A DNA stretch of 64,000 nucleotides from an uncultured Planctomycetota bacterium (GCA_963752285.1 CAVVXN010000005.1:2112001-2176000), one strand, 5' to 3'; numbered from the stretch's first letter, positions 41,406 through 59,521 are shown. Made by a program: numbers and translations. The notes: a model not told the origin generated them from the sequence alone.

Positions 41406-42040
41406 GGCGCCTCGACCGCCCGGGGATCTTCAAGGCCCGGCCGCTCAGCTGGGCCGTTCGCACGGCGGAGAGCGGCGCCGTCTCGATCAGCGCCGAGTAC
41501 CTGGTCCTGGCGCAGCTCGACGGGACGGAGTGGATCGACTGGTCCGAGGCCGAGGAGCACACCGTCTTCGGCGACACCTACGTCGTGAAACGCGACGGCA
41601 CCGTGAACACGTCCGGCGTCGAGCAGCTCGTCGCCGCACTCGGGTGGAACGGGGACCTGCGCTCCGTCGTCGGGCGGCCGCCGCAGGTGGTCGTCCAGAT
41701 CAACGTGAAGGACGAGGAGTACCAGGGGAAGCGCCGCGTCCCCCCCACGGTCCGCGAGGGGCTCGAGGCCGTCCGGCTCTCGGGCCTAACCAACATGCTC
41801 GACCGGCCGGCGGTGGCACGGATCGCCGCCGAGATGGGCTACGACGCCTGCGCGCGCTGGGTCCACCGCAACCGCGATCTCTACGCGCGCGGCGTCTTCC
41901 ACGGGTTCGAGGCCGGCGACGACGGGGAGGGGATGCGAGGAACATCTACACGACGACGGCGCTTCACACGCGGAGTTCGCAGGCCCCGCAGTCACCTGGA
42001 CTCACGGGACTTTGGATGTGGTCCGGGGACGGGGGGTTGA
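41402..42040 (+). pseudogene. Phage ssDNA-binding-like protein truncated and fused to a DUF5049-like copy
   Basis: ...VKDEEYQGK then RVPPTVREGLEAVRLSGLTNMLD, near-identical to 51683-51901. Confidence 0.65.
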
Positions 42041-42120
42041 CGACCGCCTTGGATGGGGCTCTACTCCGGCTGTGGGGCGCCCAGGGGAAGGGCCTCAGGA
42101 GCCCCGCGCCGGAGAAGACG

Positions 42121-42456
42121 ATAATCACGCTACTGAGCTACTTCACCTACGCCCTGGCGAGCGGGCAGACCTTCGTGACCGAGTGGATGCGCATTCCTGA
42201 CGGTTACCAGAACTGGCAACTCGTCGTGGCCCAGTACGGGAAGATCTCAACCACGACTGTCACCTTTCAGTTGCAGACCTGCTGGGACACGGCGAGCCCA
42301 CAGGACATCGGTACGAGCATTCTCCTCGGCGGCCTGCTGGGACCGGACCCGCAGGACATCAGCTCGGGGATGGGCCCGATGGTCCGCGTGCGCCTCGTCG
42401 CGGGCGACGACTCGGTCGGGACCATCTCCGTCTACCTCACGCCGAAGAGCGAGTAG
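42121..42456 (+). CDS. Hypothetical cargo protein (ATA at apparent start)
   Basis: GGAG RBS 7 nt before ATA ATC ACG; beta-rich open frame to TAG, followed by the next gene's RBS. Confidence 0.5.
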   Translation: MITLLSYFTYALASGQTFVTEWMRIPDGYQNWQLVVAQYGKISTTTVTFQLQTCWDTASPQDIGTSILLGGLLGPDPQDISSGMGPMVRVRLVAGDDSVGTISVYLTPKSE

Positions 42457-42466
42457 GAGGGGGGCC

Positions 42467-43483
42467 ATGCCGGGCAAGTTCAAGCCGGGGGACGCAGTCC
42501 CGCCGGGAATCAGGAGCCTTCTCGACGCCGCGAAGGCTTTGCGCCCCGGAGTGGAACACCCGACGCTGCCGCCGGGAGTCGCAGCGCGACCGTTGGGCGC
42601 TGGGCCGACTGGCGAGGCGTTTCGCGGTCTTGCCCCCGGTCTAGCGGGCGCAGGGGCTGCGCGCGTGGGGCGGAAGTGTTGCCAAGACTCGGCTGCCCGG
42701 GTTGCGCAGCAGCTGGGCCTCTCGGCCTCCCAACTCCCTCGCGTGGTTCCTCCGGCGCCAGGGGAAACCCTGACCGAGCCCCGTCCAGACGTTCTGATTC
42801 CGGGGATTCCCGACTTTCTGATTCCGGGGATTCCCGGTGATGGAAATGGTGGCGGTGGTGGGTGCTCCGGCAGCCATTGCGAGTTGGTCGTCTTTACCTC
42901 GGACGAGCAGCTGGAGGCGATGGATGAGATTGGCACGCATCTGATGTCGGTCAGGGACCGGGCGTTCGAGGCGCGACAGCAGAACCCTCGTACTGCGCTG
43001 GCCATCCCGGATCCGCACTTGGGAGGCCCTCGGCGCTCGACTGCGCCGTTCTCTGGCGGGCCGATCCCGGGCACGACAGTCCAGGTTGCATCAGCCTTCA
43101 TGGCCGTATTGTTCTACGATTGCGAGTGCGTGCAGGTGGCCGAGATCCTCTGGGACATTGAGGATGAAATCGCACCGGACGGAACCATTCACTGGCGACC
43201 TGACGCGCAGGAGGAGGTCGCGAAGATCACGATCGGGAATCGCCTGAATGACGAGGCAGACAAATTCAACGGCTCTTGCTGGAAGGCCGTCGTTGACACG
43301 CCTGCCCACCATCAGCGGATGTGGGCCGGGCAGCGTCCTAGGCCCGACCCAAAGCCGAGGGACGGCCTGTGGCGCATCACCGGGCATGTTCGTTGGGCGA
43401 ATGGCTCGGAGTGCGTAAAGAAGGAATACGTGCGCGTCGCGCAGGGTGTCCCGCGACGCGTGGTCATGGTGGGGGCCCGTTAG
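42467..43483 (+). CDS. Hypothetical cargo protein
   Basis: 338-aa ORF with GGAGG RBS and lower GC3. Confidence 0.65.
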   Translation: MPGKFKPGDAVPPGIRSLLDAAKALRPGVEHPTLPPGVAARPLGAGPTGEAFRGLAPGLAGAGAARVGRKCCQDSAARVAQQLGLSASQLPRVVPPAPGETLTEPRPDVLIPGIPDFLIPGIPGDGNGGGGGCSGSHCELVVFTSDEQLEAMDEIGTHLMSVRDRAFEARQQNPRTALAIPDPHLGGPRRSTAPFSGGPIPGTTVQVASAFMAVLFYDCECVQVAEILWDIEDEIAPDGTIHWRPDAQEEVAKITIGNRLNDEADKFNGSCWKAVVDTPAHHQRMWAGQRPRPDPKPRDGLWRITGHVRWANGSECVKKEYVRVAQGVPRRVVMVGAR

Positions 43484-43511
43484 CGTGGGTCTGCCTCGTA
43501 AGAGAGTTCTG

Positions 43512-44024
43512 ATGGCGTCCCCAGCGGGAAGTTTCGGCCTCCGCGCCGGGACTCGGGCGCTGCGCGTGGGTTTGCTGCTACCTACTCTGCTTGCCGCCGT
43601 CTCGGGCTGCTCATCTCAGGCTCTTAGTGAACGAGGTACAATTTGCAGCCTTTGTGTCCGGGACGACGGATCTGTGAGGCTGCTGGAGCGCGACAGGGCG
43701 GCGAGGGCGCGAAGGTCAGCTCGCGTCGCGGCCGTTACACAGGATCCCTGCATACGCCGGATGCTGGAGAGTGGAATTATCGAGGTCGGCATGCGCGTCG
43801 AGGAGATACGTGCCTCTTGGGGAGCCGACGCCACGGACCCGATAGACGAGGACGGGCCTAGCTGCCACGTGATTGACTACGTGACTACCGGCATGAAGCC
43901 AGAGTCCTGGACGGTCCTCTTCCGGGGCGTGGAGTTGAGCTATGCCTGCATGGCGGCGTGCCAGCGCTGGGAGGATGGGCGTTTGGTGGGAATCTCGTGC
44001 AGGGGAACCAGTCGCACTGAGTAA
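43512..44024 (+). CDS. Hypothetical cargo lipoprotein
   Basis: LLAAVSGC lipobox; GMRVEEIRASWG SmpA-like motif. Confidence 0.55.
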   Translation: MASPAGSFGLRAGTRALRVGLLLPTLLAAVSGCSSQALSERGTICSLCVRDDGSVRLLERDRAARARRSARVAAVTQDPCIRRMLESGIIEVGMRVEEIRASWGADATDPIDEDGPSCHVIDYVTTGMKPESWTVLFRGVELSYACMAACQRWEDGRLVGISCRGTSRTE

Positions 44025-44169
44025 GTTGGTCGAGCTCGACCTCCCCCCATCGACGTAGCCGTCAGATAGTCGGTCGAGATCTTGTAGCCGAGAATGCCAG
44101 CGGAACTCGGGGACGATCTATGGTAGGATGCGCGCGCGCCGATCCCAGCCGGCGCGAGCCGAGGCACCG

Positions 44170-44652
44170 ATGCCTTCGAAGCCGCGCACGCTCGCTGGGA
44201 TCCTACGCAGCCGCCGCCACGCGGACCGGGAGTACAACCGGGCGCGTCGCGACCCCGTCGTGGCCCGGATCCACGGGTCCGCCCGCTGGCAGGCCGTACG
44301 GGCCCAGGTGCTCCGCGACGAGCCCGTCTGCAGGGAGTGCGCACGCCTTGGGCTGACCGAGCCCGCTACCCAGGTGGACCACGTCGTCCCCCTGGCCGTG
44401 GCCCCCCAGCTCGCGTTCGATCGGGCCAACCTCGCCCCGACCTGCACCGCCTGCCACGCCCGCAAGAGCCAGGCCGAGCGAGTGAGGCTGAAGGGAGGGG
44501 TAGGGGGGAGTAAGGGCTCTCAGGCCGAGGGCGCCACGAGCGGGGCGCGGGGCATGCGTCGATTTTCACGGGATAGCCAAAACGTCTCCGGCGGCCGGGA
44601 GAGCCCTGGAAATGGACCTCCGCGGGGGTCCCCTCCCGGGAGCCGGCCGTGA
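44170..44652 (+). CDS. Phage-type HNH endonuclease, copy 1
   Basis: CREC...VDHVVP...NLAPTCTACHARK. Confidence 0.9.
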   Translation: MPSKPRTLAGILRSRRHADREYNRARRDPVVARIHGSARWQAVRAQVLRDEPVCRECARLGLTEPATQVDHVVPLAVAPQLAFDRANLAPTCTACHARKSQAERVRLKGGVGGSKGSQAEGATSGARGMRRFSRDSQNVSGGRESPGNGPPRGSPPGSRP

Positions 44653-44909
44653 TGCGCGTGGGACTGAAGTCCGCGAAGGGCGCCCTGTACGCCCTGGTCC
44701 GCGCCGTCGAGCAGGACGGCGAGCGGATCGTCCTGACCCGCCGCGGGCGCCCCGTCGCCGCCCTGCTCCCCGTGGGGGCGATCGAGGCGCTCGACCTCCT
44801 CGGGCGCCTGCTCCCCGACGTGGCCGACGTGGCGGCCGGGCTCGGCGACCCGGACCCCGAGGCCCCGGGCCTGGGCCCCGCCCCGGGCCCCGCGGAGGCG
44901 GCGCCGTGA
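44649..44909 (+). CDS. Phd/YefM-family antitoxin-like protein
   Basis: LVRAVE.DGERIVLTRRGRPVAALLP. Confidence 0.85.
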   Translation: MMRVGLKSAKGALYALVRAVEQDGERIVLTRRGRPVAALLPVGAIEALDLLGRLLPDVADVAAGLGDPDPEAPGLGPAPGPAEAAP

Positions 44910-45169
44910 CCGCCCCCGCCCCCCGCGCCGTCGCCGTCCGGCGCCTGCGGGCGACGCTCCGGGCCGTGGTCCGGGCCGTCGAGGAGGGCGGCGAGCCGGT
45001 GGTCCTCACCCGTCACGGCCGCCCGGTCGCCGCTCTCGTCCCCGTGGAGACGCTGGATCTGCTCTCTCCGGACGCCCCGACTGCTCTGCGCTCTCCGCTC
45101 TCGGCCGCTCTCGGCTCGCCTCCCGCCGACCAGAGCCCGGCCGCCACCCCGTCCCCGGAGGCCCCCTGA
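44906..45169 (+). CDS. Second Phd/YefM-family antitoxin-like protein
   Basis: LRATLRAVVRAVEEGGEPVVLTRHGRPVAALVP; GTGA and TGATG coupling to neighbours. Confidence 0.85.
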   Translation: MTAPAPRAVAVRRLRATLRAVVRAVEEGGEPVVLTRHGRPVAALVPVETLDLLSPDAPTALRSPLSAALGSPPADQSPAATPSPEAP

Positions 45170-46370
45170 TGGTCGCCCCCTCCTCGAATCTCGGCCGGGT
45201 CCGCCTGGAGACCCGCCGCGTCGCCGACCTCGTGCCGGCGGCCTACAACCCGAGAATCATCTCGACCGAGGCTCTCGCCGGCCTCGGGGAGTCGATCGGC
45301 CGCTACGGGCTCGTGCAGCCGATCATCGTGAACGTCCGCAGCGGCAACGTAGTCGGCGGCCACCAGCGGCTGAAGGTGCTGGAGGCGAAGGGGGTCGAGA
45401 GCACCGACGTCGTCGTGATCGACGTCGAGGAGGCCGAGGAGAAGGCGCTCAACCTCGCGCTGAACTCGCCTCGGATCTCGGGCGAGTGGACGGCCGACGC
45501 GCTGGGCCTCCTCGAGGAGGTCGTGGGCGCGCTTCCCGACCTCGGCGACGCGCTGCTCCTCTCCGGCCTCCGGGGCGACCTGGAGAAGCTCTTCCCGCAG
45601 GAGGCCGGCGACATCGTCGAGGATCCGGTCCCCGATCCCCCGGACGACCCGATCACGAAACCGGGCGACCTGATCGTGCTCGGGAGCCACCGGCTCCTCT
45701 GCGGGGACTCGGGGAGCGAGGAGGACCTCGATCGGCTGCTCGCCGGCGCGCCGGTCCATCTGCTGAACACCGACCCTCCGTACAACGTGAAGGTCGAACC
45801 GCGGTCCAACAACGCGATCCGCGCTGGGCTCTCCTCGTTCCAGGCACCCGAGAAGCGCCACCACCAGGCGCTCGATCTCGCGCGACACCCCGAGAAGGCA
45901 AAGCCCACGCACCGGAAGATGCGCGCGAAGGACCGGCCGCTGGAGAACGACTTCCTCTCCGACGAGGAGTTCGAGCAGCGCCTGCGGGCGTGGTTCGGAA
46001 ACGCCTCGCGCGTGATGCTGCCCGGGCGCGCGGCCTACATCTGGGGCGGCTACGCGAACGTGGCGAACTACCCGCCGGCCTTGAAGGAGGCCGGCTTCTA
46101 CTTCTCCCAGACGATCATCTGGGACAAGCAGCACCCCGTGCTCACGCGCAAGGACTTCATGGGTGCGCACGAGTGGTGCTTCTACTCGTGGAAGATCGGC
46201 GCCGCGCACGCGTTCTACGGGCCGCCGAACGTGCCGGACCTGTGGAGCCTGAAGAAGATCTCGCCCCAGAAGATGGTCCATCTCACGGAGAAGCCCGTCG
46301 AGCTCGCCGCCCGCGCGCTCCAGTACTCCTCGAAGAAGGGCGAGAACGTGCTCGACCTCTTCGGCGGCTC
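45169..46370 (+). pseudogene. ParB-N / N4-N6 DNA methyltransferase, truncated copy
   Basis: YNPR..GGHQR, TDPPYN, breaks at DLFGGS relative to the intact copy at 55029. Confidence 0.85.
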
Positions 46371-46479
46371 TCGGGGACCTCGATCGACTTGAAGGCGCGG
46401 TAGACCCGCGAGCGCGAGAGCAGTTCGGGGCGCTTGGCCACCATGTGCATGGCGTGGCGGAAGATCAGGGCGGCCTGGC
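46369..46479 (-). pseudogene. Inverted terminase large subunit fragment
   Basis: Reverse complement encodes QAALIFRHAMHMVAKRPELLSRSRVYRAFKSIEVPE, matching 57633-57742. Confidence 0.85.
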
Positions 46480-46821
46480 ACCACCTCGAAGAGGTCCCGA
46501 TCGGCACGCTCGGGGACGCCTACCTCCACGAGCACGGGCCCCTTTGCCCTCGGGGCCCGGGCGGCCTCGAGCTGGCGGACCCAGCGCCCCAGCGTGACCG
46601 TCGCGATGCCGACCTCCCGGCAGAACGCCACGCGGCTCTGGCCAGACTCCCGCCAACGCGTCACGACCTCGCCGATCGCCGTGAGCCGCGCCTCCCCTCG
46701 TAGCGCCCGCATCCGTTGGCCCAGGCTCCCCGGCTCGTTCGCTCGATCCGCCATGTCGACCTCCGGCCGACATCATGCCCGCGCCGGGAGTCCGCGGAAC
46801 CTGGGATGACGGGACGCATAC
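46480..46821 (-). mobile_element. IS66-family remnant (left end + truncated TnpA)
   Basis: WRESGQSRVAFCREVGI...W HTH ORF from 46754; end GTATGCGTCC at 46821 abuts the interrupted HNH. Confidence 0.7.
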
Positions 46822-46974
46822 CTCGTCGCGGAGGACCTGGGCCCGGACAGCCTGCCACCGTGCGGAACCGTGGATGCGCGCAATGACCGGGTCGCGGCGG
46901 GCGCGGTTGTACTCCCGGTCCGCGTGGCGGCGGCTACGGAGGATCCCAGCGAGCGTCTTCGGCTTCGACGGCAT
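46822..46974 (-). pseudogene. HNH endonuclease copy 3, interrupted
   Basis: MPSKPKTLAGILRSRRHADREYN...VLRDE, near-identical to copies 1 and 2. Confidence 0.9.
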
Positions 46975-47165
46975 GGAGGCCTCGGGGCGAGCCCGCTGGG
47001 ATGAGCGCGACGGGAATCTACCACGCAGGAAGATCATAGGCGCGGTCGAAAGCCAGGCAGTCTGGCCCGTGCCCAGACGAATCGCATGCGACTTCTGCAG
47101 GGGCAGAGCGCCGGCGGAGGCGGGCAGATTCAGCAGATGCAGGCCACACGTTTTCCACCCGAGAG

Positions 47166-49127
47166 CTACTCAGGTATCTCGATGTCGTAGTCACCTTCTC
47201 CGGCAGCCAAGACAAGGAGTCCCACAGCACGGACTCCTCCGTTCGTTGCGGGCCCGCCCAGCACCCTCGGCCCCAAGTTCACATCCTCGTGATAATAGAC
47301 AGCGTATGTCCCCGGCGCGATGGGACCTACGGTCGTCCTCTGCCCCCACATCAAGGGCACAATCAGGCCATTCCTGTCTTCTTGCGTTGGCAGCCGGAGT
47401 TCGGCATGCCCGATGAGTGCAGTAACGTCTCCCCTTCGCAGTGCGATCCGCGCGACCGCCCATGTTCCCGGCGCGTTGTGCAGGAGGACGTCACGTGAGC
47501 CCACTTGCACGCGCGCGACGTCGAGCGTACGACGCATTTCGTACGGGGTGAAGGTGTAAGGGAACGTCGCAGCGCAGCCTAGATCAGACCCGGGCGGAAG
47601 GGGTATCGTTAGAGCCCAACGCCCATCGGGGTGAACCTCTGTCACCCAGAACTGGCCTGGCATGGCCAGGACGATCTCAGAGCGTTTCTCCTGGAAGTCA
47701 CGCCATGGTCGAGCTTGGATAACCACGCGCTGGCCCGCAACCGACGTGGGTCCCTCGAGTCTACCGGACAGCACACCGGCGGAGTCCACGCGCAACTCCT
47801 GTACCTCGATGTCCCCGGGCACTTTGAACCCCGAACCCCACGCATTGCGGTACGGGTCGGTGCTGACCTCGTAAACGCCGGGCCGTAGAGCGGAGGTCAG
47901 AAGCTCACCGTTTAGGTTGGTAGTCCAAGAGTCGGCGTGCGCAGTGGACGCACTCCCGCTGGGGTGGAACTCGGTAATGCCAGTATTGACATCCTCAGCA
48001 GGCTCTCCGGTCGCAAGTCGGCGGTAGCCTATGCCCAGATTCGGAAGTGCGGTCCCGTCCCGACCCACGAACCTGAGCCGGACGCGGTGACGCACGCCGA
48101 TGACAAGCCGGAGATCCGAGTCTGACCCGGCCTCCGCGAGGCTCTGCCACTCAAAAACTATCGGCCCTAGGTTCGGTTCCTTCACGATGGCGGTCACCGG
48201 CCCGTGCCGGTCGATCCGTAGCATCACCGGATCCCCATCGACCACCGTCGATCCCTCTGCGCTGCCAACCGCTTGGGTGATCACCGTAACCCCCACCCGC
48301 TTCCCGGAAAGCTCTGGGTTGTCACCCGAATCCACATAGACGGGGACCATGTCCACTGGCGAGTCGCGTGGCAGCACCAAACGTATCGTCTTCTCCTGCC
48401 CAGGCTGCACGGTCAACTGCTGCGGGACGGCGCTGAGCCGTCCCTCGGCGCCCGCCTGAACGTGAACGAACCCGACTACACCTGAGATACGTACCCGCCC
48501 CAAGCCGTCCGTCAGGTAAGGCCCCGTTCCCCATGCACTGACCGGACTCGTCCGGCACGGCACTCCAGCGAGAGGGTTCCCAGCGTCGTCCACAACCTCG
48601 ATGAGAACGCTCCCAGTTTCGAAGGCGATGACTCGGAGACGACGCTCGGCAGAGTCCGGCTCACTAGCGATGGTGACCTTGTTGAGTACGTGCGGTCCGG
48701 ACAAGAAGCCGGCCGGTTCGTCCACATAGGAAAGGCCCCAGGTAGCCGGCCCTTCGGCGGGCACATGGAGCCTATAGAGGGAGCCACGGGCCTCCGCCTG
48801 CACGGGTGTTGCTCCCACGCCGTCGAGCCTCAGCGCGGACAGCTGTCCTCCTGACACTGCGTTGCCCCGCCGATCCACGACCTCCACGGCAACCAGGATC
48901 GCTCGCTCGTCGGGCGACGCGTGTTCAGCTTGTTCCGCGGGTCTAGCATCCCCCCGCCCTTCAAGGCCGGGGTTGTCCACCTTCGTATCGACAGGCACAG
49001 GCTGTTGCGCCACGCTCCAACGCTTCTGTTCGTTGCGACAGAACAGCATGAGGCCGAGGACCAAGAAGATTCCGAGTATGGCAACTACGGTCAACCTGCG
49101 AGCCCTGGTAGCAAGGCCTCTAAACAT
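47166..49127 (-). CDS. Membrane-anchored protein with carboxypeptidase-regulatory-like beta repeats (cargo)
   Basis: TM helix; VVDRRGNAVSG, VVDDAGNPLAG, TDGLGRV, LRPGVYEV repeats. Confidence 0.7.
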   Translation of the reverse strand: MFRGLATRARRLTVVAILGIFLVLGLMLFCRNEQKRWSVAQQPVPVDTKVDNPGLEGRGDARPAEQAEHASPDERAILVAVEVVDRRGNAVSGGQLSALRLDGVGATPVQAEARGSLYRLHVPAEGPATWGLSYVDEPAGFLSGPHVLNKVTIASEPDSAERRLRVIAFETGSVLIEVVDDAGNPLAGVPCRTSPVSAWGTGPYLTDGLGRVRISGVVGFVHVQAGAEGRLSAVPQQLTVQPGQEKTIRLVLPRDSPVDMVPVYVDSGDNPELSGKRVGVTVITQAVGSAEGSTVVDGDPVMLRIDRHGPVTAIVKEPNLGPIVFEWQSLAEAGSDSDLRLVIGVRHRVRLRFVGRDGTALPNLGIGYRRLATGEPAEDVNTGITEFHPSGSASTAHADSWTTNLNGELLTSALRPGVYEVSTDPYRNAWGSGFKVPGDIEVQELRVDSAGVLSGRLEGPTSVAGQRVVIQARPWRDFQEKRSEIVLAMPGQFWVTEVHPDGRWALTIPLPPGSDLGCAATFPYTFTPYEMRRTLDVARVQVGSRDVLLHNAPGTWAVARIALRRGDVTALIGHAELRLPTQEDRNGLIVPLMWGQRTTVGPIAPGTYAVYYHEDVNLGPRVLGGPATNGGVRAVGLLVLAAGEGDYDIEIPE

Positions 49128-49230
49128 CACACTCGTCTCCGAGATGGAAGCGTGGCTGCACACGCTGCCCCGTGGGGACCTGCGCGTGCGGCCACGCAGT
49201 GCAGCCGTAGATGCAAGGCGGCTCGCCTAG

Positions 49231-50281: not shown

Positions 50282-50372
50282 CGTCCTTCCCTCAGCGCCT
50301 CGCGTCCCGTTCGATCTTCACCGCCACCTGATCGCTGTCTGCGCGCGACTCGATCCGCGTCACACCGAAGAG

Positions 50373-50549: not shown

Positions 50550-50692
50550 TGCGCCCCTTCCAACCCCCTAGCGGCCCACGGACAGCCATTTTCAGGCCTC
50601 GGGGGCGGTCGAATCCTCTTGAGGTGCCCCCCGACCAGAGCCCTTATGCGACTCGACCGGCGGGGAGCGCCCCCGCCGCAAGGAGACTGACA

Positions 50693-51070
50693 ATGGCGAC
50701 GAAGAGCACGAAGAAGAAGGCCACCCGGAAGAAGGCGGCGAAGCGCCCGGCCCGGAAGGCCAAGGCCGCCCCCAGGCCGAAGGCCCCGGCGAAGGCGAAG
50801 GCCGCGCCGGCGAAGGCCGACGCGCCCGTCCGCGAGCGCGACCCGCGCCTGCCCCGCCCGGGCGGGGTCCTCACCCGCACGTTCCAGGGCAAGGAGCACC
50901 GGGTCCAGGTCCTCGACGCGGGCTTCCTCTACGACGGGAAGACGTGGCGCAGTCTCTCGGCGATCGCGAAGGCGATCTCCGGGACCGCGTGGAACGGGTA
51001 CCTGTTCTGGGGCCTCCAGAAGCGCGCGAAGGCGCCGGCCCAGAACGGCCAGACGGGCGGTGCCGAGTGA
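50693..51070 (+). CDS. DUF2924-like protein with Lys/Ala-rich N-terminus
   Basis: AGGAG RBS; PGGVLTRTFQGKEHRV.V...GF.YDG...SLSAIAKAISGTAWNGYLFWGL. Confidence 0.85.
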   Translation: MATKSTKKKATRKKAAKRPARKAKAAPRPKAPAKAKAAPAKADAPVRERDPRLPRPGGVLTRTFQGKEHRVQVLDAGFLYDGKTWRSLSAIAKAISGTAWNGYLFWGLQKRAKAPAQNGQTGGAE

Positions 51071-51402
51071 CGCGCCGCACGACCGACCCCCGCCCCCTCC
51101 TTCGGGAGGGGGCGATGTACTGGGCCGACAACGGCCGGCGGATCTGTGCACGCTGCGCGGGCTCCTCCGCGCTCTACACGGGGCGCGACATCTCGGGGCA
51201 GCCCATCGAGCGGGCCTCGCTCCGCGACTCGGTGGACTGGCTCTCCTCGCTGGGATCCCTGCTCGCCTGCGAGCAGGGCTGCACGGTTCTCGGGCTGATC
51301 GCCGGCCGGGACGGGTGGCCGATGCCGCACCAGGGTCCGGTGCCAGAGGACGTGACCGCAGCGGTCGAGGACGCCATGCGGCGGATGGGCGGTGCCCGAT
51401 GA
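51067..51402 (+). CDS. Hypothetical phage protein
   Basis: Coupled GTGA start; DNGRRICARCAG. Confidence 0.65.
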   Translation: MTRRTTDPRPLLREGAMYWADNGRRICARCAGSSALYTGRDISGQPIERASLRDSVDWLSSLGSLLACEQGCTVLGLIAGRDGWPMPHQGPVPEDVTAAVEDAMRRMGGAR

Positions 51403-51686
51403 CCGTCCCCTACGAGGTCAGGGTCGCGCCGGGGATCTGGATCCGCGTGGCCACGCTTGCCGAGGCGTCGCTGGCCGTCTGCCAGCACCGTGACGCCTAC
51501 AACTTCGGCTCCTCGAAGTGGGGCCAGGAGAGCGCGCCCGTCCGGGCCATCGGGACCACGAGAGCCATCGCCCGCGTCTCGTACAACGGCCGGGTCTGGA
51601 CACCCGAGCGCGACTGGCAGCGTCGATCGGAGATCACCGGCGCCGCCCTCCACGGGGCACCCCTCGCGAAGGGGGGGGCCCGGTGA
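51399..51686 (+). CDS. Hypothetical phage protein
   Basis: Coupled ATGA start; ARVSYNGRVW. Confidence 0.65.
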   Translation: MTVPYEVRVAPGIWIRVATLAEASLAVCQHRDAYNFGSSKWGQESAPVRAIGTTRAIARVSYNGRVWTPERDWQRRSEITGAALHGAPLAKGGAR

Positions 51687-51901
51687 CGGCGGGCGGCGCG
51701 GTCCGCGTGCCCCCCGACGTCCGCGAGGGGCTCGAGGCCGTCCGGCTCTCGGGCCTCACGAACATGCTCGACCGCCCGGCGGTGGCCCGGATCGCCGCCG
51801 CCATGGGCTACGACGCCTGCGCGCGATGGGTCCTGGAGCACCGGGGGCTGTACGCGCGCGGGGTCTTCTACGGCTTCGAGGCCGAGGACGGCTGGGGTTG
51901 A
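51683..51901 (+). CDS. DUF5049-like protein
   Basis: LEAVRLSGLTNMLDRPAVARIA..MGY. Confidence 0.75.
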   Translation: MTAGGAVRVPPDVREGLEAVRLSGLTNMLDRPAVARIAAAMGYDACARWVLEHRGLYARGVFYGFEAEDGWG

Positions 51902-52144
51902 CGGCCCTGAGGGGGGGACTGGGGGGGCCGTCCGGCCTGCGGGCCGCCCACCGGGCCCCGATCGACGGTGCAGCATTCGCGTTCTCGTAATGTTTGCGTG
52001 TCACCTTCCGGGGGTGACACACTGGGCAACGTGCCACAATCCCCGGGAAACCAGAGCACGGACGCCCCGTGCTGCGATGTCGGGCTCCAACTCGGCTGGA
52101 CGCGGCGCGGTTCGCCCGTATCCCCCATCAGGAGGCTTCTAGTC

Positions 52145-52990
52145 ATGCGCGCGCCGCTCCAAGGGCAGAACTGGTGTCGCGCCTTCGCGCGCGCCAACGT
52201 GCGGTTGCTGGCCGGTACTGGGCTCGCCTTCATGCTGATGCTTGGCCCGGGGAACGTGCGCGCGGACGATCCGCCGCCTCCCACAGGTGACGGCACCATA
52301 TGCTTCCAGATCAAGGGAACCGCTGGGGCCCAGGAGTCTGGAGAGATCAACTTCACGGCCTCGAAGAAGTCCAAGGACGATCCGGGCACGCCAGACACGG
52401 ATGAGGGCCAACTGAGTATCAGTGAGCCTATTCCCCAGCATGCAAGCCTCGAGGCAATCGTCGGGCTCATCGCCGATTCGTTGAACGAGGCGGGATGGAC
52501 CTCGCCCGAGGACTACGTCATCGCGGGCAACTGCATCAAGTTGAAGGACGTGAATGGGATTGATGGTGACCCTGGTGATACGTTGGTCGTCATGTCCTGG
52601 GCAACAAGTCGTGTCGATCTGCCAGTAACAGGCAGAAAGGTCAAGGTCACGGACAAGGGCGGGCCGAACCGAGGCCGTGGTGGATTCCTGTACATCGTCG
52701 GTGGGGGGCCGTTCATCAATTCCGCAGGAGAGAACGAAGTGGCAGTCGCTGACGTCATCGTGCCCTTCAACGATGAGGACAGCATCGTGGACATCATGGG
52801 CCACGCCGTGTTCCTGATGCGGAATAGCGGATGGTCCGTGGACTATGCCGCCGGGACTGCGGAGTTTGTAGTGCATACGCTGCCTGGCGGGCACATCATC
52901 GACGATTTGACTCTCTCGATTGAGTATGTCGATGGGGATACTCCACCGGAGTTGGAATGGCACTGGTCCATCGAGTTCGTGGACGACTGA
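52145..52990 (+). CDS. Secreted hypothetical protein (cargo, paralog 1)
   Basis: Signal peptide ending VRA-DD; lower GC3; similar to 53003-53788. Confidence 0.75.
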   Translation: MRAPLQGQNWCRAFARANVRLLAGTGLAFMLMLGPGNVRADDPPPPTGDGTICFQIKGTAGAQESGEINFTASKKSKDDPGTPDTDEGQLSISEPIPQHASLEAIVGLIADSLNEAGWTSPEDYVIAGNCIKLKDVNGIDGDPGDTLVVMSWATSRVDLPVTGRKVKVTDKGGPNRGRGGFLYIVGGGPFINSAGENEVAVADVIVPFNDEDSIVDIMGHAVFLMRNSGWSVDYAAGTAEFVVHTLPGGHIIDDLTLSIEYVDGDTPPELEWHWSIEFVDD

Positions 52991-53002
52991 GGGAGCAGAC
53001 CC

Positions 53003-53788
53003 ATGCGCACATTTATCTCGGCTCTTGCTGTCCTCATGCTGCCTCTGTTGGCCCAAGCTGACGGCACAGGGACGGTCACATTCTACGTGCTCTGTGGTAC
53101 CAAGGGCATGGACTCCCAGATCGAGGCCCAGGATGGAACGACCGTGCGGTTGACTGCGAAGAAGGGCACCAAGGTCTTGGACGACACCTTCACTTTCCCG
53201 AAGGGTTCCACGGCCGCGACCGCCGTGGATCATTATGCTGCTGCCTTAGCTGCTGCTGGATTCGTTGAGGGCACAGACTTCGTCAAAGCAGGGAACTCTA
53301 TCAAGTTCAAGAACCCGGATCACATTGACGGCGGAACCCAGAATCGCTGCCAATACTCCGTTACATACCGCGTATCTGGCGGTGTCGGGGTCGGTAGTGC
53401 CCCTGTGACTGGGGCTGAAGTCAAGATCGGAAAGAACGCCCCGGCAGGGGGAAGCTTCATCATCACCGGCCTCGGGCTCGCTCCGCTCCCCGGGGGCGGG
53501 TATCAAGCGCGAAGCGCCCACGCCCAGGTTGAGGTTCATCCAACAGACACTGATGTCGAGACTATGGAGCGGGTTGCTGGGCGCCTTGTCTCTTTGGGGT
53601 GGAGCGCTGAGTACTCCTCGTCGGCAGGGGTTATCCGTATCACTACGCTTCCCGATGGCACCCAGCTGACTGCGCTTACATGTGCGTTCCTTGATGATGG
53701 GCAATTCGCCGCGGGCGGTATCTGTTCGGAGACTGAGCCCGTGCGACCTGAGGCACTCCACTGGCGTTGCGCAATCGTTCGCGATTAG
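53003..53788 (+). CDS. Secreted hypothetical protein (cargo, paralog 2)
   Basis: Signal peptide MRTFISALAVLMLPLLAQA; GGGAG RBS. Confidence 0.8.
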   Translation: MRTFISALAVLMLPLLAQADGTGTVTFYVLCGTKGMDSQIEAQDGTTVRLTAKKGTKVLDDTFTFPKGSTAATAVDHYAAALAAAGFVEGTDFVKAGNSIKFKNPDHIDGGTQNRCQYSVTYRVSGGVGVGSAPVTGAEVKIGKNAPAGGSFIITGLGLAPLPGGGYQARSAHAQVEVHPTDTDVETMERVAGRLVSLGWSAEYSSSAGVIRITTLPDGTQLTALTCAFLDDGQFAAGGICSETEPVRPEALHWRCAIVRD

Positions 53789-54032
53789 AGCCCGTAACCG
53801 GCCACGGGCATCGCATCGCACCTGTACGTCGGCGCGATGGACCTGTGCAGGGGGCTCCATTACCGCGGGCATGGACGAGTTGCTCATGGCACTGGGTGGA
53901 GGCAGCTAGCAAATCGACTCGTGTCTCGGCTGGTTGGAGCCGCAGTGTTGCCGTTGTAGTGAGTTTGGCTGCTCCACTCCTGTATGGTAGGCTGTTGGCG
54001 CGCTCATCCCAGCGGGCGCGCCCCGAGGCACC

Positions 54033-54446
54033 ATGCCGTCGAAGCCGCGCACGCTCGCTGGGATCCTACGCAGCCGCCGCCACGCGGACCGGGAGTACAA
54101 CCTCGCCCGCCGCGACCCGGCCGTGGCCCGGATCCATGGGTCCGCCCGCTGGCAGGCCGTGCGTGCCCAGGTGCTCCGCGACGAGCCCCTCTGCCGGGAG
54201 TGCGCACGCCTCGGCTTGACCGAGCCCGCCACGCAGGTGGACCACGTCGTCCCCCTGGCCGTGGCCCCCGAACTCGCGTTCGTGCGGTCCAACCTCGCGC
54301 CGACCTGCACGGCCTGCCACGCGCGCAAGTCGGCGTCGGATCGGCGTCGAGCGGGCGTCGATCCGGGGGAGGGGGGGGCCTCCGAGCTCTCAGGCCGAGG
54401 GGCCCACGAGCGGGGCGCGGGGCATGCGTCGATTTTCACGGGATAG
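54033..54446 (+). CDS. Phage-type HNH endonuclease, copy 2
   Basis: CREC...VDHVVP...NLAPTCTACHARK. Confidence 0.9.
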   Translation: MPSKPRTLAGILRSRRHADREYNLARRDPAVARIHGSARWQAVRAQVLRDEPLCRECARLGLTEPATQVDHVVPLAVAPELAFVRSNLAPTCTACHARKSASDRRRAGVDPGEGGASELSGRGAHERGAGHASIFTG

Positions 54447-54518
54447 CCAAAACGCCTCCGGCGGGCCGGAGAGCCCTGAAACTAGCCCTCCGACGTATGT
54501 ACCCCCCAAGGGGGCCGC

Positions 54519-54779
54519 ATGACCGGCGTCCCGCTCAAGGCCGCCCAGCGGGACCTGATGGCCCTGGTCCGCGCCGTCGAGGAGGACGGCGAGCGGATCG
54601 TCCTGACCCGCCGCGGGCGCCCCGTCGCCGCCCTGCTCCCCGTGGGGGCGATCGAGGCGCTCGACCTCCTCGGGCGGCTGCTCCCCGACGTGGCCGACGT
54701 GGCCGCTGGGTTCGGCGAGACGGACCCGGAGGCCCCGGGCCTGGGGCCGGCCCCGGGCTCCGAGGAGGCGGCGCCGTGA
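54519..54779 (+). CDS. Phd/YefM-family antitoxin-like protein
   Basis: Near-identical to 44649-44909. Confidence 0.85.
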   Translation: MTGVPLKAAQRDLMALVRAVEEDGERIVLTRRGRPVAALLPVGAIEALDLLGRLLPDVADVAAGFGETDPEAPGLGPAPGSEEAAP

Positions 54780-55029
54780 CCAGCCCCGCCCCCCGCACCG
54801 TCGCCGTCCGGCGCCTCCGGGCGACGCTCCGGGCCGTCGTCCGGGCCGTCCAGGAGGGCGGCGAGCGCGTGGTCCTCACCCGCCACGGGCGTCCGGTCGC
54901 CGCTCTCGTCCCCCTGGATCTGCTGGAACCGCTCCCCCCGGCGCTCTGCGCTCTCCGCTCTCGGCCGCTCTCGGCTCGCCTCCCGCCGACGAGAGCCCGG
55001 CCGCCACCCAGTCCCCGGAGGCCTCGTGA
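54776..55029 (+). pseudogene. Second Phd/YefM-like gene with frameshifted tail
   Basis: Homologous to 44906-45169, but the TGA at 55027 is out of frame. Confidence 0.65.
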
Positions 55030-56402
55030 TGGTCGCCCCCTCGAACCTCGGCCGCGTCCGCCTGGAGACCCGCCGCCTCTCGGACCTCGTGCCCGCGGCC
55101 TACAACCCGAGAGTCATCTCGACCGAGGCCCTCGCCGGCCTCGGCGAGTCGATCGGCCGCTACGGTCTGGTGCAGCCGATCATCGTGAACGACCGCAGCG
55201 GCAACGTCGTCGGCGGCCACCAGCGGTTGAAGGTGCTGGAGGCGAAGGGCGTCGAGGCGACCGACGTCGTCGTGATCGACGTCGAGGAGGCCGAGGAGAA
55301 GGCCCTCAACCTCGCTCTCAACTCCCCCCGCATCTCGGGCGAGTGGACCGCCGACGCGCTCGGCCTGCTCGAGGAGGTCGTCGGCGCGCTGCCCGACCTC
55401 GGCGACGCACTGCTCCTCTCCGGCCTCCGGGGCGACCTGGAGAAGCTCTTCCCGCAGGAAGCCGGCGACATCGTCGAGGACGAGGTCCCCGAGCCCCCCG
55501 ACGACCCGGTCACGAAGCCCGGCGACCTCTGGGTGCTGGGGAGCCACCGGCTCCTCTGCGGCGACTCAGGCGACGAGACGGACCTCGACCGGCTGCTCGC
55601 CAGCGCGCCGGTCCACCTGCTCAACACCGACCCGCCCTACAACGTGAAGGTCGAGCCGAGAAGCAACAACGCGATCCGTGCCGGGCTCTCGTCCTTCTCC
55701 GCACCCGAGAAGCGACACCACCAGGCGCTCGACCTCGCGCGCCATCCCGAGAAGGCGAAGCCCACGCACCGCAAGATGCGGGCGAAGGACCGGCCGCTGG
55801 AGAACGACTTCCTCTCCGACGAAGAGTTCGAGAAGCGGCTGCGCGCGTGGTTCGGCAACGCCTCGCGCGTCATGCTCCCCGGGCGTGCGGCCTACATCTG
55901 GGGTGGCTACGCGAACGTGGCGAACTACCCGCCGGCCCTGAAGGAGGCAGGCTTCTACTTCTCCCAGACCATCATCTGGGACAAGCAGCACCCGGTTCTC
56001 ACGCGCAAGGACTTCATGGGTGCGCACGAGTGGTGCTTCTACTCGTGGAAGGTCGGCGCCGCGCACGCGTTCTACGGGCCGCCGAACGTGCCGGACCTCT
56101 GGGCGATCAAGAAGGTGAACCCGCAGTCGATGGTCCACCTGACCGAGAAGCCCATCGAGCTCGCCGCCCGCGCGCTCCAGTACTCCTCGAAGAAGGGCGA
56201 GAACGTGCTCGATCTCTTCGGCGGCTCGGGCTCGACGCTCATGGCCTGCGAGCAGCTCGGCCGGCGCGCGTTCCTCATGGAGCTCGACCCGGCCTACACC
56301 GACGTGATCGTCGAGCGCTGGCAGACGGCGACGGGCCAGAAGGCGAAGCGGGAGAGCGCGAAGCCGCCCGCGCGCAAGGCGCGGAGGAAGGCGAAGATCT
56401 GA
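55029..56402 (+). CDS. ParB-N domain fused to N4/N6 DNA methyltransferase
   Basis: YNPR, GGHQRL, TDPPYN, HLTEKP, DLFGGSGST, MELDP. Confidence 0.93.
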   Translation: MVAPSNLGRVRLETRRLSDLVPAAYNPRVISTEALAGLGESIGRYGLVQPIIVNDRSGNVVGGHQRLKVLEAKGVEATDVVVIDVEEAEEKALNLALNSPRISGEWTADALGLLEEVVGALPDLGDALLLSGLRGDLEKLFPQEAGDIVEDEVPEPPDDPVTKPGDLWVLGSHRLLCGDSGDETDLDRLLASAPVHLLNTDPPYNVKVEPRSNNAIRAGLSSFSAPEKRHHQALDLARHPEKAKPTHRKMRAKDRPLENDFLSDEEFEKRLRAWFGNASRVMLPGRAAYIWGGYANVANYPPALKEAGFYFSQTIIWDKQHPVLTRKDFMGAHEWCFYSWKVGAAHAFYGPPNVPDLWAIKKVNPQSMVHLTEKPIELAARALQYSSKKGENVLDLFGGSGSTLMACEQLGRRAFLMELDPAYTDVIVERWQTATGQKAKRESAKPPARKARRKAKI

Positions 56403-56740
56403 TGCTGTACCTGGCCTCTCCGTACTCCCACTCCGACCCGGCCGTCCGGGCGACCCGCTACCAGCAGGCGTGCTGGCACGCCGTGCGCCTGATGCGAGGC
56501 GGCCGGCTCGTGTACTCACCCATCGTCCACAGCCACGCGCTCGCGGAGCTGGGCCTGCCGGGCGACTGGCCGTTCTGGGCCGAGCACAACCGCGAGATGA
56601 TGGCGGCATGCCGCGAGCTCGTGGTGCTCGCGCTCGACGGGTGGAAGGGGAGCCGGGGCGTCGCCGCCGAGATCGGGATCGCGACGGAGCTCGGGATCCC
56701 CGTGCGCTTCGAGGCGCCCAGCGAGGTGGCCCATGCCTAA
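56402..56740 (+). CDS. DUF1937-like protein
   Basis: MLYLASPYSH...SPIVHSH...DGW..S.GV..EI. Confidence 0.85.
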   Translation: MLYLASPYSHSDPAVRATRYQQACWHAVRLMRGGRLVYSPIVHSHALAELGLPGDWPFWAEHNREMMAACRELVVLALDGWKGSRGVAAEIGIATELGIPVRFEAPSEVAHA

Positions 56741-57224
56741 GCCCGGCCCCGCCCGGACGCCGACGAAGAAGCTCGCGCTGCGCGGGAGCTGGCGGGCGGC
56801 CACGCGCTCCGGCGAACCCCGGCCCGAGCCCGAGGCGCCGCCTCGCCCCGCCGCGCTCCCCCCCGCGGCCGCCGCCGTGTGGGACGAGGTCCTCCCGCAG
56901 CTCGGGGCCGCCGGGCTCCTCGGCCGCGTGGACGGGCGCTCCTTCACCCGCTACTGCGAGCTCTTCCCCGTGTGGGACGACCTCATGGCGTTCCTTCGGA
57001 AGTCCGGCCACGCCCACCCCGTGAAGAACGCGAAGGGCGAGGTCGTGGGCGTCCGCCCGTACCCGCAGCTTCGGCTCGCGCTCCAGGTCTCCGAGCACCT
57101 CCTGCGCCTGGAGAGCCAGTTCGGGATGACGCCGGCGGCGCGCGCGCGGCTCGTGGTCGAGCCGCTCCTGCCGCCGACGCCCGCCCTCGAGCACTACTTC
57201 CAGCCCCGGAGGCTCGGCCGATGA
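56733..57224 (+). CDS. Phage terminase small subunit (P27 family)
   Basis: PGP..TPT..L.LRG, W, YC, FGMTPAARARL. Confidence 0.9.
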   Translation: MPKPGPARTPTKKLALRGSWRAATRSGEPRPEPEAPPRPAALPPAAAAVWDEVLPQLGAAGLLGRVDGRSFTRYCELFPVWDDLMAFLRKSGHAHPVKNAKGEVVGVRPYPQLRLALQVSEHLLRLESQFGMTPAARARLVVEPLLPPTPALEHYFQPRRLGR

Positions 57225-58672
57225 GCGCCCCGGATCCCGCGGCCCCAATCGCCTCCTGGGGCGACGCCGCCCTCGAGCAGGTCTGCCGGACGGAGATCCC
57301 CGGCTACGACCCGTGGGCGACGGCGCTCCCGTCGCATCGCTTCGACGTCTCGCTCGCGCGCCGCGCAATCGGCTTCTTCCACGACATGCTCCTGTTCGTG
57401 GAGGGCGAGCGCGCCGGCGAGCCCTTCGACCTGGAGCCCTGGCAGGCGGCGATCGTCGGGAACCTGTTCGGGTGGGTGGACGCCGAGAGCGGGCTTCGGC
57501 GCTACCGCGAGGCGCTCGTGTTCGTCGCTCGGAAGAACGGCAAGACGTCGCTGGCCGCCGGCCTCGCCCTCTACCTCCTCCTCTGCGACGGGGAGCCCGG
57601 CGGGCAGGTGTACTCGGCGGCCGCCGAGCAGAGCCAGGCCGCGCTGATCTTCCGCCACGCCATGCACATGGTGGCGAAGCGCCCCGAGCTCCTGACCCGC
57701 ACGCGCGTCTACCGCGCCTTCAAGTCGATCGAGGTCCCCGAGACGGGCTCGATCTTCCGGGCGCTGACCGCCGACGCCCAGACGAAGCACGGCCTCTCGG
57801 TCCACGGCGCCGTGATCGACGAGCTCCACGCGCACCCCACGCGCGACCTCGTGGACGTGCTCCAGACGGGCACCGGGTCTCGGCGCCAGCCGATGACGGT
57901 CCACATCACGACGTCTGACTACGAGCGCGTGTCGATCTGCAACGAGAAGTACGACTACGCGACGAAGGTGCGCGACGGTGCGCTCGCCGACCCCTCGTTC
58001 CTGCCCGTGATCTACGAGGCCGCGATCGAGGATCCGTGGGACTCGCCGGAGACTTGGCGCAAGGCCAACCCGAACCTCGGCGTCTCCGTGAAGGAGGACT
58101 ACCTGGAGCGCGAGTGCGCCCGGGCGAAGGAGTCGCCCGCGTACCTGAACACGTTCCTGAGGCTCCACTTGAACATCCGGACCAACGCCGACGTCGCCGC
58201 CTTCGACATGCGCCAGTGGGAGGCGTGCCGGGGCGAGCGGAGCTTCCACCAGCTCGCCACCGACCTCGAGGGGCACGAGTGCTTCGCGGGGCTCGACCTC
58301 GCGAGCACGGAGGACCTGACGGCGCTCGTGCTCGTGTTCCCCGACGACGGGAACGCCGTGCTCCCCTTCTTCTGGTGCCCGAAGGAGGGGGCCGTCAACC
58401 GGGAGCGGCGCCACCGCGTGCCCTACACGGGGTGGGCGCGGGACGGGTTCCTCCACCTCACGGACGGGAACGCCACGGACTTCGACCACGTCGAGCGCAC
58501 CGTGATCGAGCTCTCGAAGCGCTACCGGATCAATTGACTGGGCTTCGACCGCTTCGGGGCCTCCCAGGTCGTGAACCACCTGCAGGACGCCGGCGTCGAG
58601 GTCGTGCTCTTCGGGCAGGGCTACGTGTCGATGAACGCGCCCTCGAAGCACCTCGACGTCCTCGTGCGCTCA
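57221..58672 (+). pseudogene. Phage terminase large subunit, internal TGA and truncated
   Basis: LEPWQ, ARKNGKT, IDELH, ANPNLG, GLDLAST; TGA at 58535-58537 then in-frame LGFDRFGA...QGY.SMNAPSK until ~58672. Confidence 0.88.
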
Positions 58673-58689
58673 CGCGCACGCACGCCCTC

Positions 58690-59478: not shown

Positions 59479-59521
59479 GCCCTGGCGGCCTCCCCCGGAC
59501 TGAACCGGCGCACTTCAACGC

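Follow-up and report, generated by a model that had tools for sequence, protein, structure and literature searches.

Morons, as described for phages such as HK97, HK022, and lambda, have deviant GC content and their own expression signals, and they frequently have membrane or exclusion functions (PMC3594210). Many of their products are located in the membrane or exported, and these keep out other phages or change the surface of the cell (PMC3594210). In P2 and P4, hotspots of gene turnover adjoin the cos site (bioRxiv 10.1101/2021.01.21.427644), and many phages encode an HNH protein next to cos and the terminase genes (PMC3592412). Here, we describe a comparable locus in a 64,000-nucleotide stretch of DNA from an uncultured Planctomycetota bacterium (GCA_963752285.1 CAVVXN010000005.1:2112001-2176000). 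We refer to this whole stretch as the window, and positions are counted from its first letter. Between 41.7 and 58.7 kb it contains three related phage-derived modules, each with different genes (cargo) in the same slot immediately before an HNH endonuclease gene. We interpret them as three decayed, related HK97-like prophages with a classic moron, or accessory-gene, hotspot, a reading to which we give a probability of roughly 85%. The direct evidence for it consists of homology, truncations, slot variability, slot borders, and conservation of a hairpin at one of those borders.

Three truncated copies of one phage family

Self-BLAST and a repeat search revealed three related backbones at 41.7 to 58.7 kb that are 84 to 92% identical. 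Positions 44119-46370 in copy 1 matched 53983-56227 in copy 2 (88.5% over 2261 nt), and a DUF5049 segment was also shared between them (41734-41927 and 51703-51896; 85.6%). Copy 3 is inverted, and its positions 46822-47030 matched 54185-53978 at 85.6% and 44121-44322 at 83.7%. All of these matches had E values of ≤1e-54, which is far above chance level. A preliminary description of the window had already recognized three phage-like modules, and these comparisons bear it out. It had also called the backbones near-identical, but at 84 to 92% identity they are related rather than near-identical. Every domain that it named was recovered by Pfam or PHROGs searches. The Pfam matches in the window were DUF5049 (twice), HNH (twice), PhdYeFM (two per copy), ParB_N plus N6_N4_Mtase (twice), DUF1937, Terminase_4, TerL_ATPase/TerL_nuclease, and DUF2924. 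The three copies are 8 to 16% divergent from one another, and from the HNH gene through the DNA methyltransferase (MTase) gene copy 1 is almost as close to L001 (87.7%), one of the related loci described below, as it is to copy 2 (89.0%). Therefore, the copies are not recent duplicates.

Copy 1 and its slot comprise the following features:

40587-41405 (+), Sak4-like AAA_24 recombination ATPase (Pfam AAA_24, 6.4e-27; PHROG 124, 1.1e-26)
41402-42040 (+), DUF5049-domain protein (Pfam DUF5049, 2e-09)
41931-44118 (+), slot 1, GC 0.649, with the three open reading frames (ORFs) on the next lines
42016-42456 (+), ORF of 146 aa, no export-type N terminus
42467-43483 (+), ORFan of 338 aa, no export-type N terminus
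43446-44024 (+), lipoprotein-like ORF, lipobox LAAVSGC downstream of an internal Met
44121-44169 (+), right-border control region: extended -10-like motif TGGTAGGAT, 7-bp hairpin at 44136-44156, GAGG, and ATG
44170-44652 (+), HNH endonuclease (Pfam HNH, 1.2e-07; PHROG 144, 1.1e-25)
44649-44909 and ~44906-45168 (+), tandem Phd/YefM-like genes (Pfam PhdYeFM, 2.4e-09 and 7.4e-12; repeat family D4)
45169-46392 (+), ParB_N-N6/N4 DNA MTase, truncated (Pfam, PHROGs, self-BLAST)

The Sak4-like ATPase belongs to the replication/recombination module of the copy 1 phage. The DUF5049 protein is homologous to those of copy 2, L001, and L007 in its domain only, and the similarity stops at about 41930-41956. 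The start of the HNH gene is the ATG that is conserved between copies in the alignment. Homology in the MTase breaks at 46370, leaving 407 aa compared to 458 aa in copy 2, and this cut point abuts an inverted scrap of terL, the terminase large-subunit gene, that belongs to copy 3.

Copy 2 is the longest, and its features extend from a primase remnant to a broken terL:

50405-51901 (+), left arm (Pfam, comparison with relatives)
50405-50546 (+), Prim-Pol/D5 primase remnant, last ~46 codons (comparison with relatives)
50441-51070 (+), DUF2924 protein, start uncertain (Pfam)
50944-51402 (+), 152-aa protein
51518-51901 (+), DUF5049 protein (Pfam)
51897-53982 (+), slot 2, GC 0.614, with two paralogous signal-peptide proteins
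51968-52990 (+), signal-peptide protein, probable start further in
53003-53788 (+), signal-peptide protein, paralogue of the preceding one
53985-54032 (+), right-border control region: TGGTAGGCT, hairpin at 54000-54020, GAGG, and ATG
54033-54446 (+), HNH endonuclease (Pfam HNH, 9.1e-08; PHROG 144)
54519-55028 (+), tandem Phd/YefM-like genes (Pfam)
55026-56402 (+), ParB_N-MTase, intact, 458 aa (Pfam, PHROGs)
56399-56740 (+), DUF1937/nucleoside 2-deoxyribosyltransferase-like protein (Pfam, PHROGs)
56733-57224 (+), terminase small subunit (terS), Terminase_4/P27 type (Pfam, 1.2e-14; PHROG 83, 4.8e-21)
57221-58671 (+), terL, defective (TerL_ATPase, 6.7e-32; PHROG 9, 1.4e-134)

The copy 2 terL begins at ATG 57221 and has a premature TGA at 58535-58537, where its relatives read on. 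Its homology is lost at about 58672, roughly 200 nt before the end of the gene, in a region where L001, L002, and L008 still align with one another. Only positions 11-173 of the 286 in the Pfam TerL nuclease domain remain. A frameshift was considered as the lesion and rejected: the ORF at 58036-59478 resembles the relatives only through DNA conservation in another frame, and the lesion is the stop together with the truncation. The second phd gene lacks 10 nt that copy 1 has, and this deletion shifts its 3' tail (repeat offsets, 9870 versus 9860). The tandem Phd/YefM-like genes have no recognizable toxin partner and are a conserved part of the backbone in the window and in L001, L002, and L003. 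They could encode regulators or anti-defense proteins.

Copy 3 lies between the other two on the minus strand and comprises the following features:

46369-46479 (-), internal terL fragment (92% to 57633-57743, 97% to L001)
46480-46754 (-), tentative gene fragment of an insertion sequence (IS)-type helix-turn-helix (HTH) transposase (HTH_Tnp_1, 0.0026, under the Pfam curated cut-off)
46822-47030 (-), HNH 5' stump with -10-like motif and hairpin (ATG at 46974; hairpin at 46988-47008)
47031-50149 (-), slot 3, GC 0.641, with two cargo ORFs
47166-49163 (-), 665-aa protein with N-terminal anchor and CarboxypepD_reg-like domains (Pfam)
49231-50025 (-), signal-peptide protein (heuristic and by eye)
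50150-50281 (-), small conserved gene, 3' end of 43 codons, cut at ~50283 (tblastn to relatives)

In the alignment, 51 conserved codons of the copy 3 HNH gene remain, and its hairpin has one mismatched pair. The IS-type fragment is placed between the HNH stump and the terL scrap. In relatives, the small conserved gene is what borders the slot on the left, and by tblastn it matched L001, L002, L003, L005, L006, L007 (twice), and L008. The backbones with HNH, MTase, and terL genes are thus present as the preliminary description had them, except that the copy 3 HNH gene is a stump and the copy 1 MTase and copy 2 terL genes are truncated.

Nine related loci (L001 to L009) were found in a scan of genome contigs seeded by two peptide patterns from the HNH N terminus. 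All nine came from metagenome-assembled genomes (MAGs) of Planctomycetota. One MAG had three of the loci, and L007 had two copies inside 20 kb. Four of them (L001, L002, L003, and L008) are contiguous prophages. Their genes are in the order helicase or Prim-Pol/D5, DUF2924, unknown genes, a small gene of ~100 aa, a variable stretch, and HNH, followed by phd, ParB-MTase, DUF1937 in some, terS, and TerL. These relatives have TerL ORFs of 672 to 678 aa in which the nuclease domain is complete. L001, L002, and L003 go on into a portal gene (2e-74), which is followed by an S49 protease gene in L002 and L003 and by an HK97-family capsid gene in L001. The L008 contig stops ~320 nt past terL, and tail genes lie beyond the stretches examined in the relatives. 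The TerL protein was 42% identical to that of Streptococcus phage Javan122, whose genes are laid out in the same way (MTase, HNH, MTase, terS, terL, portal, Clp protease, and capsid). Such a backbone is ordinary among phages. When the copy 2 backbone DNA was compared with a phage collection, there were short terL and MTase matches of 64 to 76% in unrelated phages and no close relative.

These relatives establish the phage family layout as terS (P27), TerL, portal, S49 protease, and HK97 capsid. Further upstream in this layout, some members have DUF5049 between DUF2924 and the small gene, and HNH is followed by two phd genes. In the window, the copies have been reduced to truncated remnants and do not make up a complete prophage. 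We read the island at 40 to 58.7 kb as the broken remains of at least three genomes, all from one temperate HK97-like phage family of Planctomycetota. Portal, HK97-fold capsid, and tail genes are absent from the window, as had been noted before for portal, capsid, and tail genes in general, and a prohead protease gene is absent too. Because copy 2 breaks inside terL, these genes are missing through deletion and not by design.

A variable slot before the HNH gene

The slot is flanked on the left by the small gene or DUF5049 and on the right by HNH in all three window copies (W1 to W3), in L001 to L003, and in L005 to L008, and it holds one to four genes. In copies 1 and 2, homology stops directly after the DUF5049 domain. 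In the others, the left border lies after the small gene. The window slots are 2.1 to 3.1 kb, with GC contents of 0.649, 0.614, and 0.641 in copies 1, 2, and 3, compared to 0.72 to 0.73 for the backbone. GC was lower in all 11 slots with a defined left border (0.61 to 0.68, versus 0.70 to 0.78 for backbone).

We compared 13 slot or upstream sequences by tblastx (E ≤ 1e-5): the 3 window slots, 8 slots from seven of the related loci, and, for L004 and L009, the sequence upstream of HNH. Nothing was shared in 76 of the 78 pairs. One of the two related pairs is L003 and L005, which both have a MerR gene plus a small exported protein, and the other is W3 and L007a (the first of two L007 slots, a and b), which have a leader of ~120 nt before unrelated first genes. 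A single MAG contains both L002 and L003, which may be strain variants. Their flanks are 93.6 to 95.0% identical, and their slots (1.8 kb and 1.3 kb) are unrelated, with break points at the small-gene stop and at a TG-N-TA motif. Therefore, the fixed slot with exchangeable content that was proposed from the window holds up: the right border is the same in 12 of 12 copies, nearly all slot pairs are unrelated, and L002 and L003 differ in nothing but the slot. Constant content in other copies would have spoken against it, and in the nine loci the content varies.

The ~120-nt leader is at 49960-50090 (-) in the window and at 8030-8148 in L007. It ends in GGAGAAGGA, was present in 2 of the 13 slots, and possibly serves as a shared expression signal, with ORFs having been exchanged downstream of it. 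Slot L007a opens with an ORF of ~42 aa with the lipobox LLGAAGC (L007 7560-7690, read from the alignment). In L001, a 3.1-kb insertion (5073-8219) with inverted ends CTATGC..GCATAG splits the small gene and encodes two tyrosine recombinases, both on the opposite strand. The uninterrupted site is seen at L007 18075-18150, and the insertion is a separate mobile element, not slot cargo.

All of the window cargo ORFs are co-oriented with HNH, and all seven are open next to truncated phage genes. The six main cargo proteins are mutually unrelated except for the copy 2 paralogues, and the six window cargo proteins tested had no match in any of the nine related loci. Export-type N termini were assigned by a crude heuristic to five of the seven (one lipobox, three signal peptides, and one anchor, as a raw count). 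The description of the cargo as lower in GC, co-oriented, unrelated between copies, and mostly with signal peptides or anchors is therefore accurate for the window. Its further suggestion that the slot delivers exported proteins fits those five, but only part of the cargo elsewhere:

L001 and L007a, signal-peptide or lipoprotein-like proteins
L002, DUF2130
L003 and L005, MerR
L006, GmrSD/HEC-05-type enzyme (PADLOC)
L007b and L008, proteins without export signals

With GmrSD, DUF2130, MerR, and cytoplasmic-looking cargo in relatives, the slot is not restricted to exported proteins. Among 32 cargo and 5 backbone proteins, PADLOC picked out only the L006 enzyme and the backbone MTases, plus DUF2130 (weakly, as LmuB-like) and MerR (through an HTH match). 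Most cargo, like the 152-aa protein and the small conserved gene, had no family in Pfam or PHROGs.

A word-index search of 5.8e9 proteins, which is limited by word and length and may miss distant relatives, found at most one non-self relative for each of three window cargo proteins. The 338-aa ORFan of slot 1 had no non-self relative in that search and no usable Atlas hit, and a 248-aa form of the slot 3 signal-peptide protein had one. No slot 1 cargo matched PADLOC, Pfam, or PHROGs at E ≤ 0.001, and the single match beyond that threshold was between the 146-aa ORF and PHROG 26027 (0.0049). The 665-aa protein of slot 3 resembles Planctomycetota clusters of multi-domain CarboxypepD_reg proteins (score, 0.95). 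The slot 2 paralogues (340 and 261 aa) are 27.5% identical. In a full HMMER search with the 340-aa protein as the query, their family proved small, with 19 representatives among 1.84e9 (E ≤ 1e-3); its members are signal-peptide proteins of ~260 aa. An AlphaFold (AF2) model of the 261-aa protein, made from an 18-row alignment, had a mixed alpha/beta fold, a predicted local distance difference test (pLDDT) score of 77.2, and a predicted template modeling (pTM) score of 0.74. It had no PDB or BFVD match with a template modeling (TM) score of >0.27.

The right border is sharp to the base. In the three window copies, homology resumes at TATGGTAGG or GTGGTAGAT, 45 to 48 nt 5' of the HNH ATG. With the nine related loci included, similarity starts at TG-N-TA in 12 of 12 copies, so the earlier observation that homology resumes at an extended -10-like motif before the HNH ATG extends well beyond the window. 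The motif is TGGTAGNNT in most copies and TGCTATGAT, TGATATGAT, or TGGTATCCT in the rest. It is followed by ~7 variable bases, a 7-bp stem with the loop ATCCCAGC, GAGG, and the ATG. Pairing is kept in 83 of 84 cells of the stem, the exception being one cell in the decayed copy 3. Seven copies close the stem with C-G and the other five with G-C. Of 500 shuffles, only 2 scored as high as the real sequences for pairing or covariation, and slid controls were 26 to 64% paired. Three of the pairs use G-U, which points to RNA of the sense strand. The only Rfam match in the whole window was to tRNA, so the hairpin is not a described RNA family. From these sequences, we infer that an extended -10 promoter makes up the right border together with a 5'-terminal hairpin and a Shine-Dalgarno sequence. 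If selection preserves this unit, that would explain why the border is so sharp.

L004 has a complete HNH gene with the motif and hairpin (9951-10504) amid IS91, IS1595, and integrase genes, and no other phage backbone gene is within 10 kb on either side. This solitary HNH gene is probably another remnant.

The window as a whole is ~72% GC, and its first 35 kb contain housekeeping genes (methionyl- and arginyl-tRNA synthetases, thiolase, acyl-CoA dehydrogenases, and acetyl-CoA synthetase). The housekeeping genes stop, and phage-type gene content begins, past a tRNA gene:

39869-39945 (+), tRNA-Arg (CCT) (ARAGORN, Rfam)

This tRNA gene may be an old integration site. Neither it nor its 3' flank had a second copy of ≥14 nt, except for one chance 14-mer, and there was no att repeat. 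Past the terL break, the DNA at 58672-64000 is lower in GC (0.65 to 0.69). It includes a 499-aa ORF without a family (59522-61021, -), a tubulin-tyrosine-ligase/ATP-grasp-like gene (62154-62981, -), and an IS1595-family insertion sequence (61229-62257; transposase at 61268-62212, -) with 44-nt inverted ends. An IS1595 transposase gene is likewise near the solitary HNH gene of L004. Two tandem arrays in the window are unrelated to the prophages or lie among the housekeeping genes. A 92-nt unit is repeated 5.5 times with 96% identity at 8195-8702, just downstream of a region for a single-stranded-DNA-binding (SSB) domain and unrelated to the prophages. A GC-rich array with a period of 53 to 57 nt and ~6 copies (87 to 88% identity) is at 16019-16347, between the methionyl-tRNA synthetase and acyl-CoA dehydrogenase genes.

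A probable moron hotspot weighed against other explanations

The slot is the seam between the early/replication genes and an HNH-led block that runs into the packaging and head genes. We suggest that foreign genes of lower GC are added or swapped into this seam, with illegitimate recombination followed by homologous exchange via the conserved flanks as the likely route. Everything from TG-N-TA-NNN-T onward is apparently needed for expression of HNH and the downstream genes. The cargo would likely serve the lysogen, as envelope or surface proteins for superinfection exclusion or surface remodeling, as defense enzymes (GmrSD), or as regulators. By analogy with known morons, we propose that the cargo acts at the cell envelope on the lysogen's behalf. 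Selection at the level of the host might then retain cargo after the prophage has died, and seven open cargo ORFs adjacent to broken phage genes fit such host-level selection.

Several points count against this interpretation. No relative with an empty slot was found among the 12 copies, so accretion of DNA is a deduction and not an observation. The sample of nine loci is small and biased to copies that keep the HNH N terminus. The window lacks an att repeat, repressor, and tail gene, and Pfam found no integrase at 36 to 64 kb; the phage origin therefore rests on homology to the relatives. Signal peptides and anchors were judged only by eye and with a hydrophobicity heuristic. None of the seven window cargo proteins matched in PADLOC, and clear defense cargo was in one slot only (GmrSD/HEC-05 in L006). 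A scan of 41.7 to 54.3 kb for the sigma-70 consensus, which may not fit planctomycetal promoters, found no full sites compared to 0.8 expected, and terminator-like sites were not enriched (7 found, 4.9 expected). Finally, only one hairpin pair covaries, among related sequences, which is modest evidence.

A stronger version of the hotspot interpretation is that this is a dedicated expression slot that preferentially captures envelope-targeted proteins, which would remodel the unusual planctomycetal surface, for instance to shut out superinfecting phages, and which the host would keep after phage decay. The five export-type window cargo proteins, and exported or lipoprotein-like cargo in L001, L003/L005, and L007a as well, are in keeping with it. 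So is the leader shared by W3 and L007a before unrelated genes, which hints at the swapping of ORFs behind a common signal. We regard this version as possible but rather doubtful. If it is true, cargo families such as the ~260-aa two-lobed secreted family without a fold match would be new classes of phage-borne surface factors.

Variants of a single prophage, from mixed strains or multicopy repeats, might have been misjoined during assembly. Abrupt junctions at 46370, 50283-50405, and 58672 are what such an artifact could leave, the related records are themselves MAGs, and L002 and L003 may be co-binned strain variants. However, the 8 to 16% divergence of the copies is far beyond strain variation, and their left arms and cargo differ. 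Cluster records of window proteins list a longest contig of 2.35 Mb, one junction contains an IS fragment, as a real rearrangement predicts, and in L007, which is from a different genome, a 20-kb stretch likewise includes an HNH stump and a second slot. Misassembly is therefore very unlikely.

The preliminary description raised the possibility of a phage satellite or transfer-agent-like system. On that view, the units are working elements that resemble satellites or gene transfer agents (GTAs), their structural genes are missing by design, and the slot ships exported cargo beside the packaging site. The window agrees with this in having no portal, capsid, or tail gene while retaining HNH, terS, and part of terL. 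The cargo ORFs are intact, and several copies can occur in one genome (three loci in one MAG and two in the 20 kb of L007). The relatives do not agree with it. They join the same backbone to a full terL in L001, L002, L003, and L008 and to a portal plus protease or capsid in L001 to L003, whereas the window terL is stopped and cut in midgene where they continue. The MTase, HNH, primase, and small genes are also truncated, at unrelated positions, and the short units have no integrase or replication initiator of their own. Cargo elsewhere is often cytoplasmic. As for the packaging site, the slot does adjoin HNH, but it lies ~2.7 kb from terS, and we located no cos site. This explanation is already largely refuted, and we consider it highly improbable.

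We also rejected an integron-like, site-specific cassette system in which the right-border hairpin is the recombination site. A border that is base-invariant in all 12 copies and adjoins a conserved hairpin, in which one pair is compensatory, would suit such a system, as would the two tyrosine recombinase genes nearby in L001. However, each HNH copy has the hairpin motif a single time, and the rest of the window and loci lacks it, including the left border and the gaps between cargo genes, which speaks against a cassette recombination site. The left border is at two different places (after DUF5049 or after the small gene), and the G-U pairs suit a role in RNA rather than DNA. Of the 12 HNH-bearing copies, 10 have no recombinase adjoining the slot. 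The other two are L001, where the genes are in the separate 3.1-kb insertion with its own inverted ends, and L007a, which has an integrase gene ~450 nt before the small gene. This leaves the idea scarcely credible.

Another idea, that tandem prophages have enclosed ordinary host DNA as the cargo, with the slot as an attachment junction, is just as hard to credit. The copies are indeed tandem or inverted beside a tRNA gene, and the 665-aa cargo protein resembles a type common in Planctomycetota chromosomes. But in L002, L003, and L008 a slot of 1.3 to 3.8 kb is inside one contiguous prophage, between replication genes and an HNH-terL block that continues into the portal gene in L002 and L003. 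The three cargo proteins taken through the word-index search had at most one non-self relative each, slot GC is 4 to 15 points under both backbone and chromosome, and the search for att repeats of the tRNA was negative.

Comparison with known systems

The decayed prophages with a moron hotspot that we favor can be set beside several described systems. Integron arrays do not fit, because here there is no repeated recombination site at cassette ends and, in 10 of 12 copies, no recombinase beside the slot. The window units resemble satellites (phage-inducible chromosomal islands [PICIs], capsid-forming PICIs [cf-PICIs], and P4-like elements) and GTAs in being short, in having no structural genes, and in keeping packaging genes of the terS/HNH type. 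They differ from satellites in that the backbone of their relatives carries structural genes, their ends are truncations inside genes, and the units have no integrase, primase, or regulator set of the satellite type. A GTA is a head-tail cluster without replication or lysogeny genes, whereas here structural genes are absent and a Sak4 gene and a primase stump are present.

The locus also resembles an HK97-type packaging module. In both, HNH is upstream of a P27-type terS, a Terminase_1-type TerL, and an HK97-family portal, protease, and capsid. The family described here differs in having two Phd/YefM-like genes, a ParB-MTase gene, and DUF1937 between HNH and terS, and the window copies are defective. 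Kala et al. reportedly found in 2014 that such HNH proteins assist cos cleavage.

With the P2 and P4 hotspots, at least as characterized in the source cited above, the locus shares gene turnover at a fixed place near packaging functions with conserved flanks. Cargo there is useful to the lysogen, and here one slot (L006) has a GmrSD/HEC-05-like enzyme. Unlike in those hotspots, the phage family is HK97-like rather than P2-like, with terS ~2.7 kb from the slot and no cos located, and the cargo is mostly of the exported type and without a function by PADLOC (0 of 7 in the window) instead of recognized defense systems.

Along with these hotspots, the morons of HK97, HK022, and lambda are the nearest analogues. 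Going by the account cited at the outset, those are also extra genes between conserved neighbors with deviant GC and a content that varies among close relatives, and many of their products are membrane, lipoprotein, or exported proteins. The differences are a Planctomycetota host, one recurrent position with one to four genes instead of scattered single-gene inserts, and 12 copies with no empty-site relative, which is unlike morons as described. This is ordinary phage biology to which the host phylum gives the use, and it is not a new kind of mobile element. The locus is nevertheless a clean, base-precise case of cassette turnover by a conserved promoter-like motif and 5' hairpin. The small gene and HNH provide a marker pair for harvesting accessory genes from planctomycetal phages, and the window adds a few orphan proteins of the exported type, whose site of action may be the envelope of planctomycetes. 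No dedicated study of Planctomycetes prophages or terminases surfaced among the top matches of a limited literature search. The pattern of accessory genes at a fixed spot is well known in phages and seldom described in this bacterial group.

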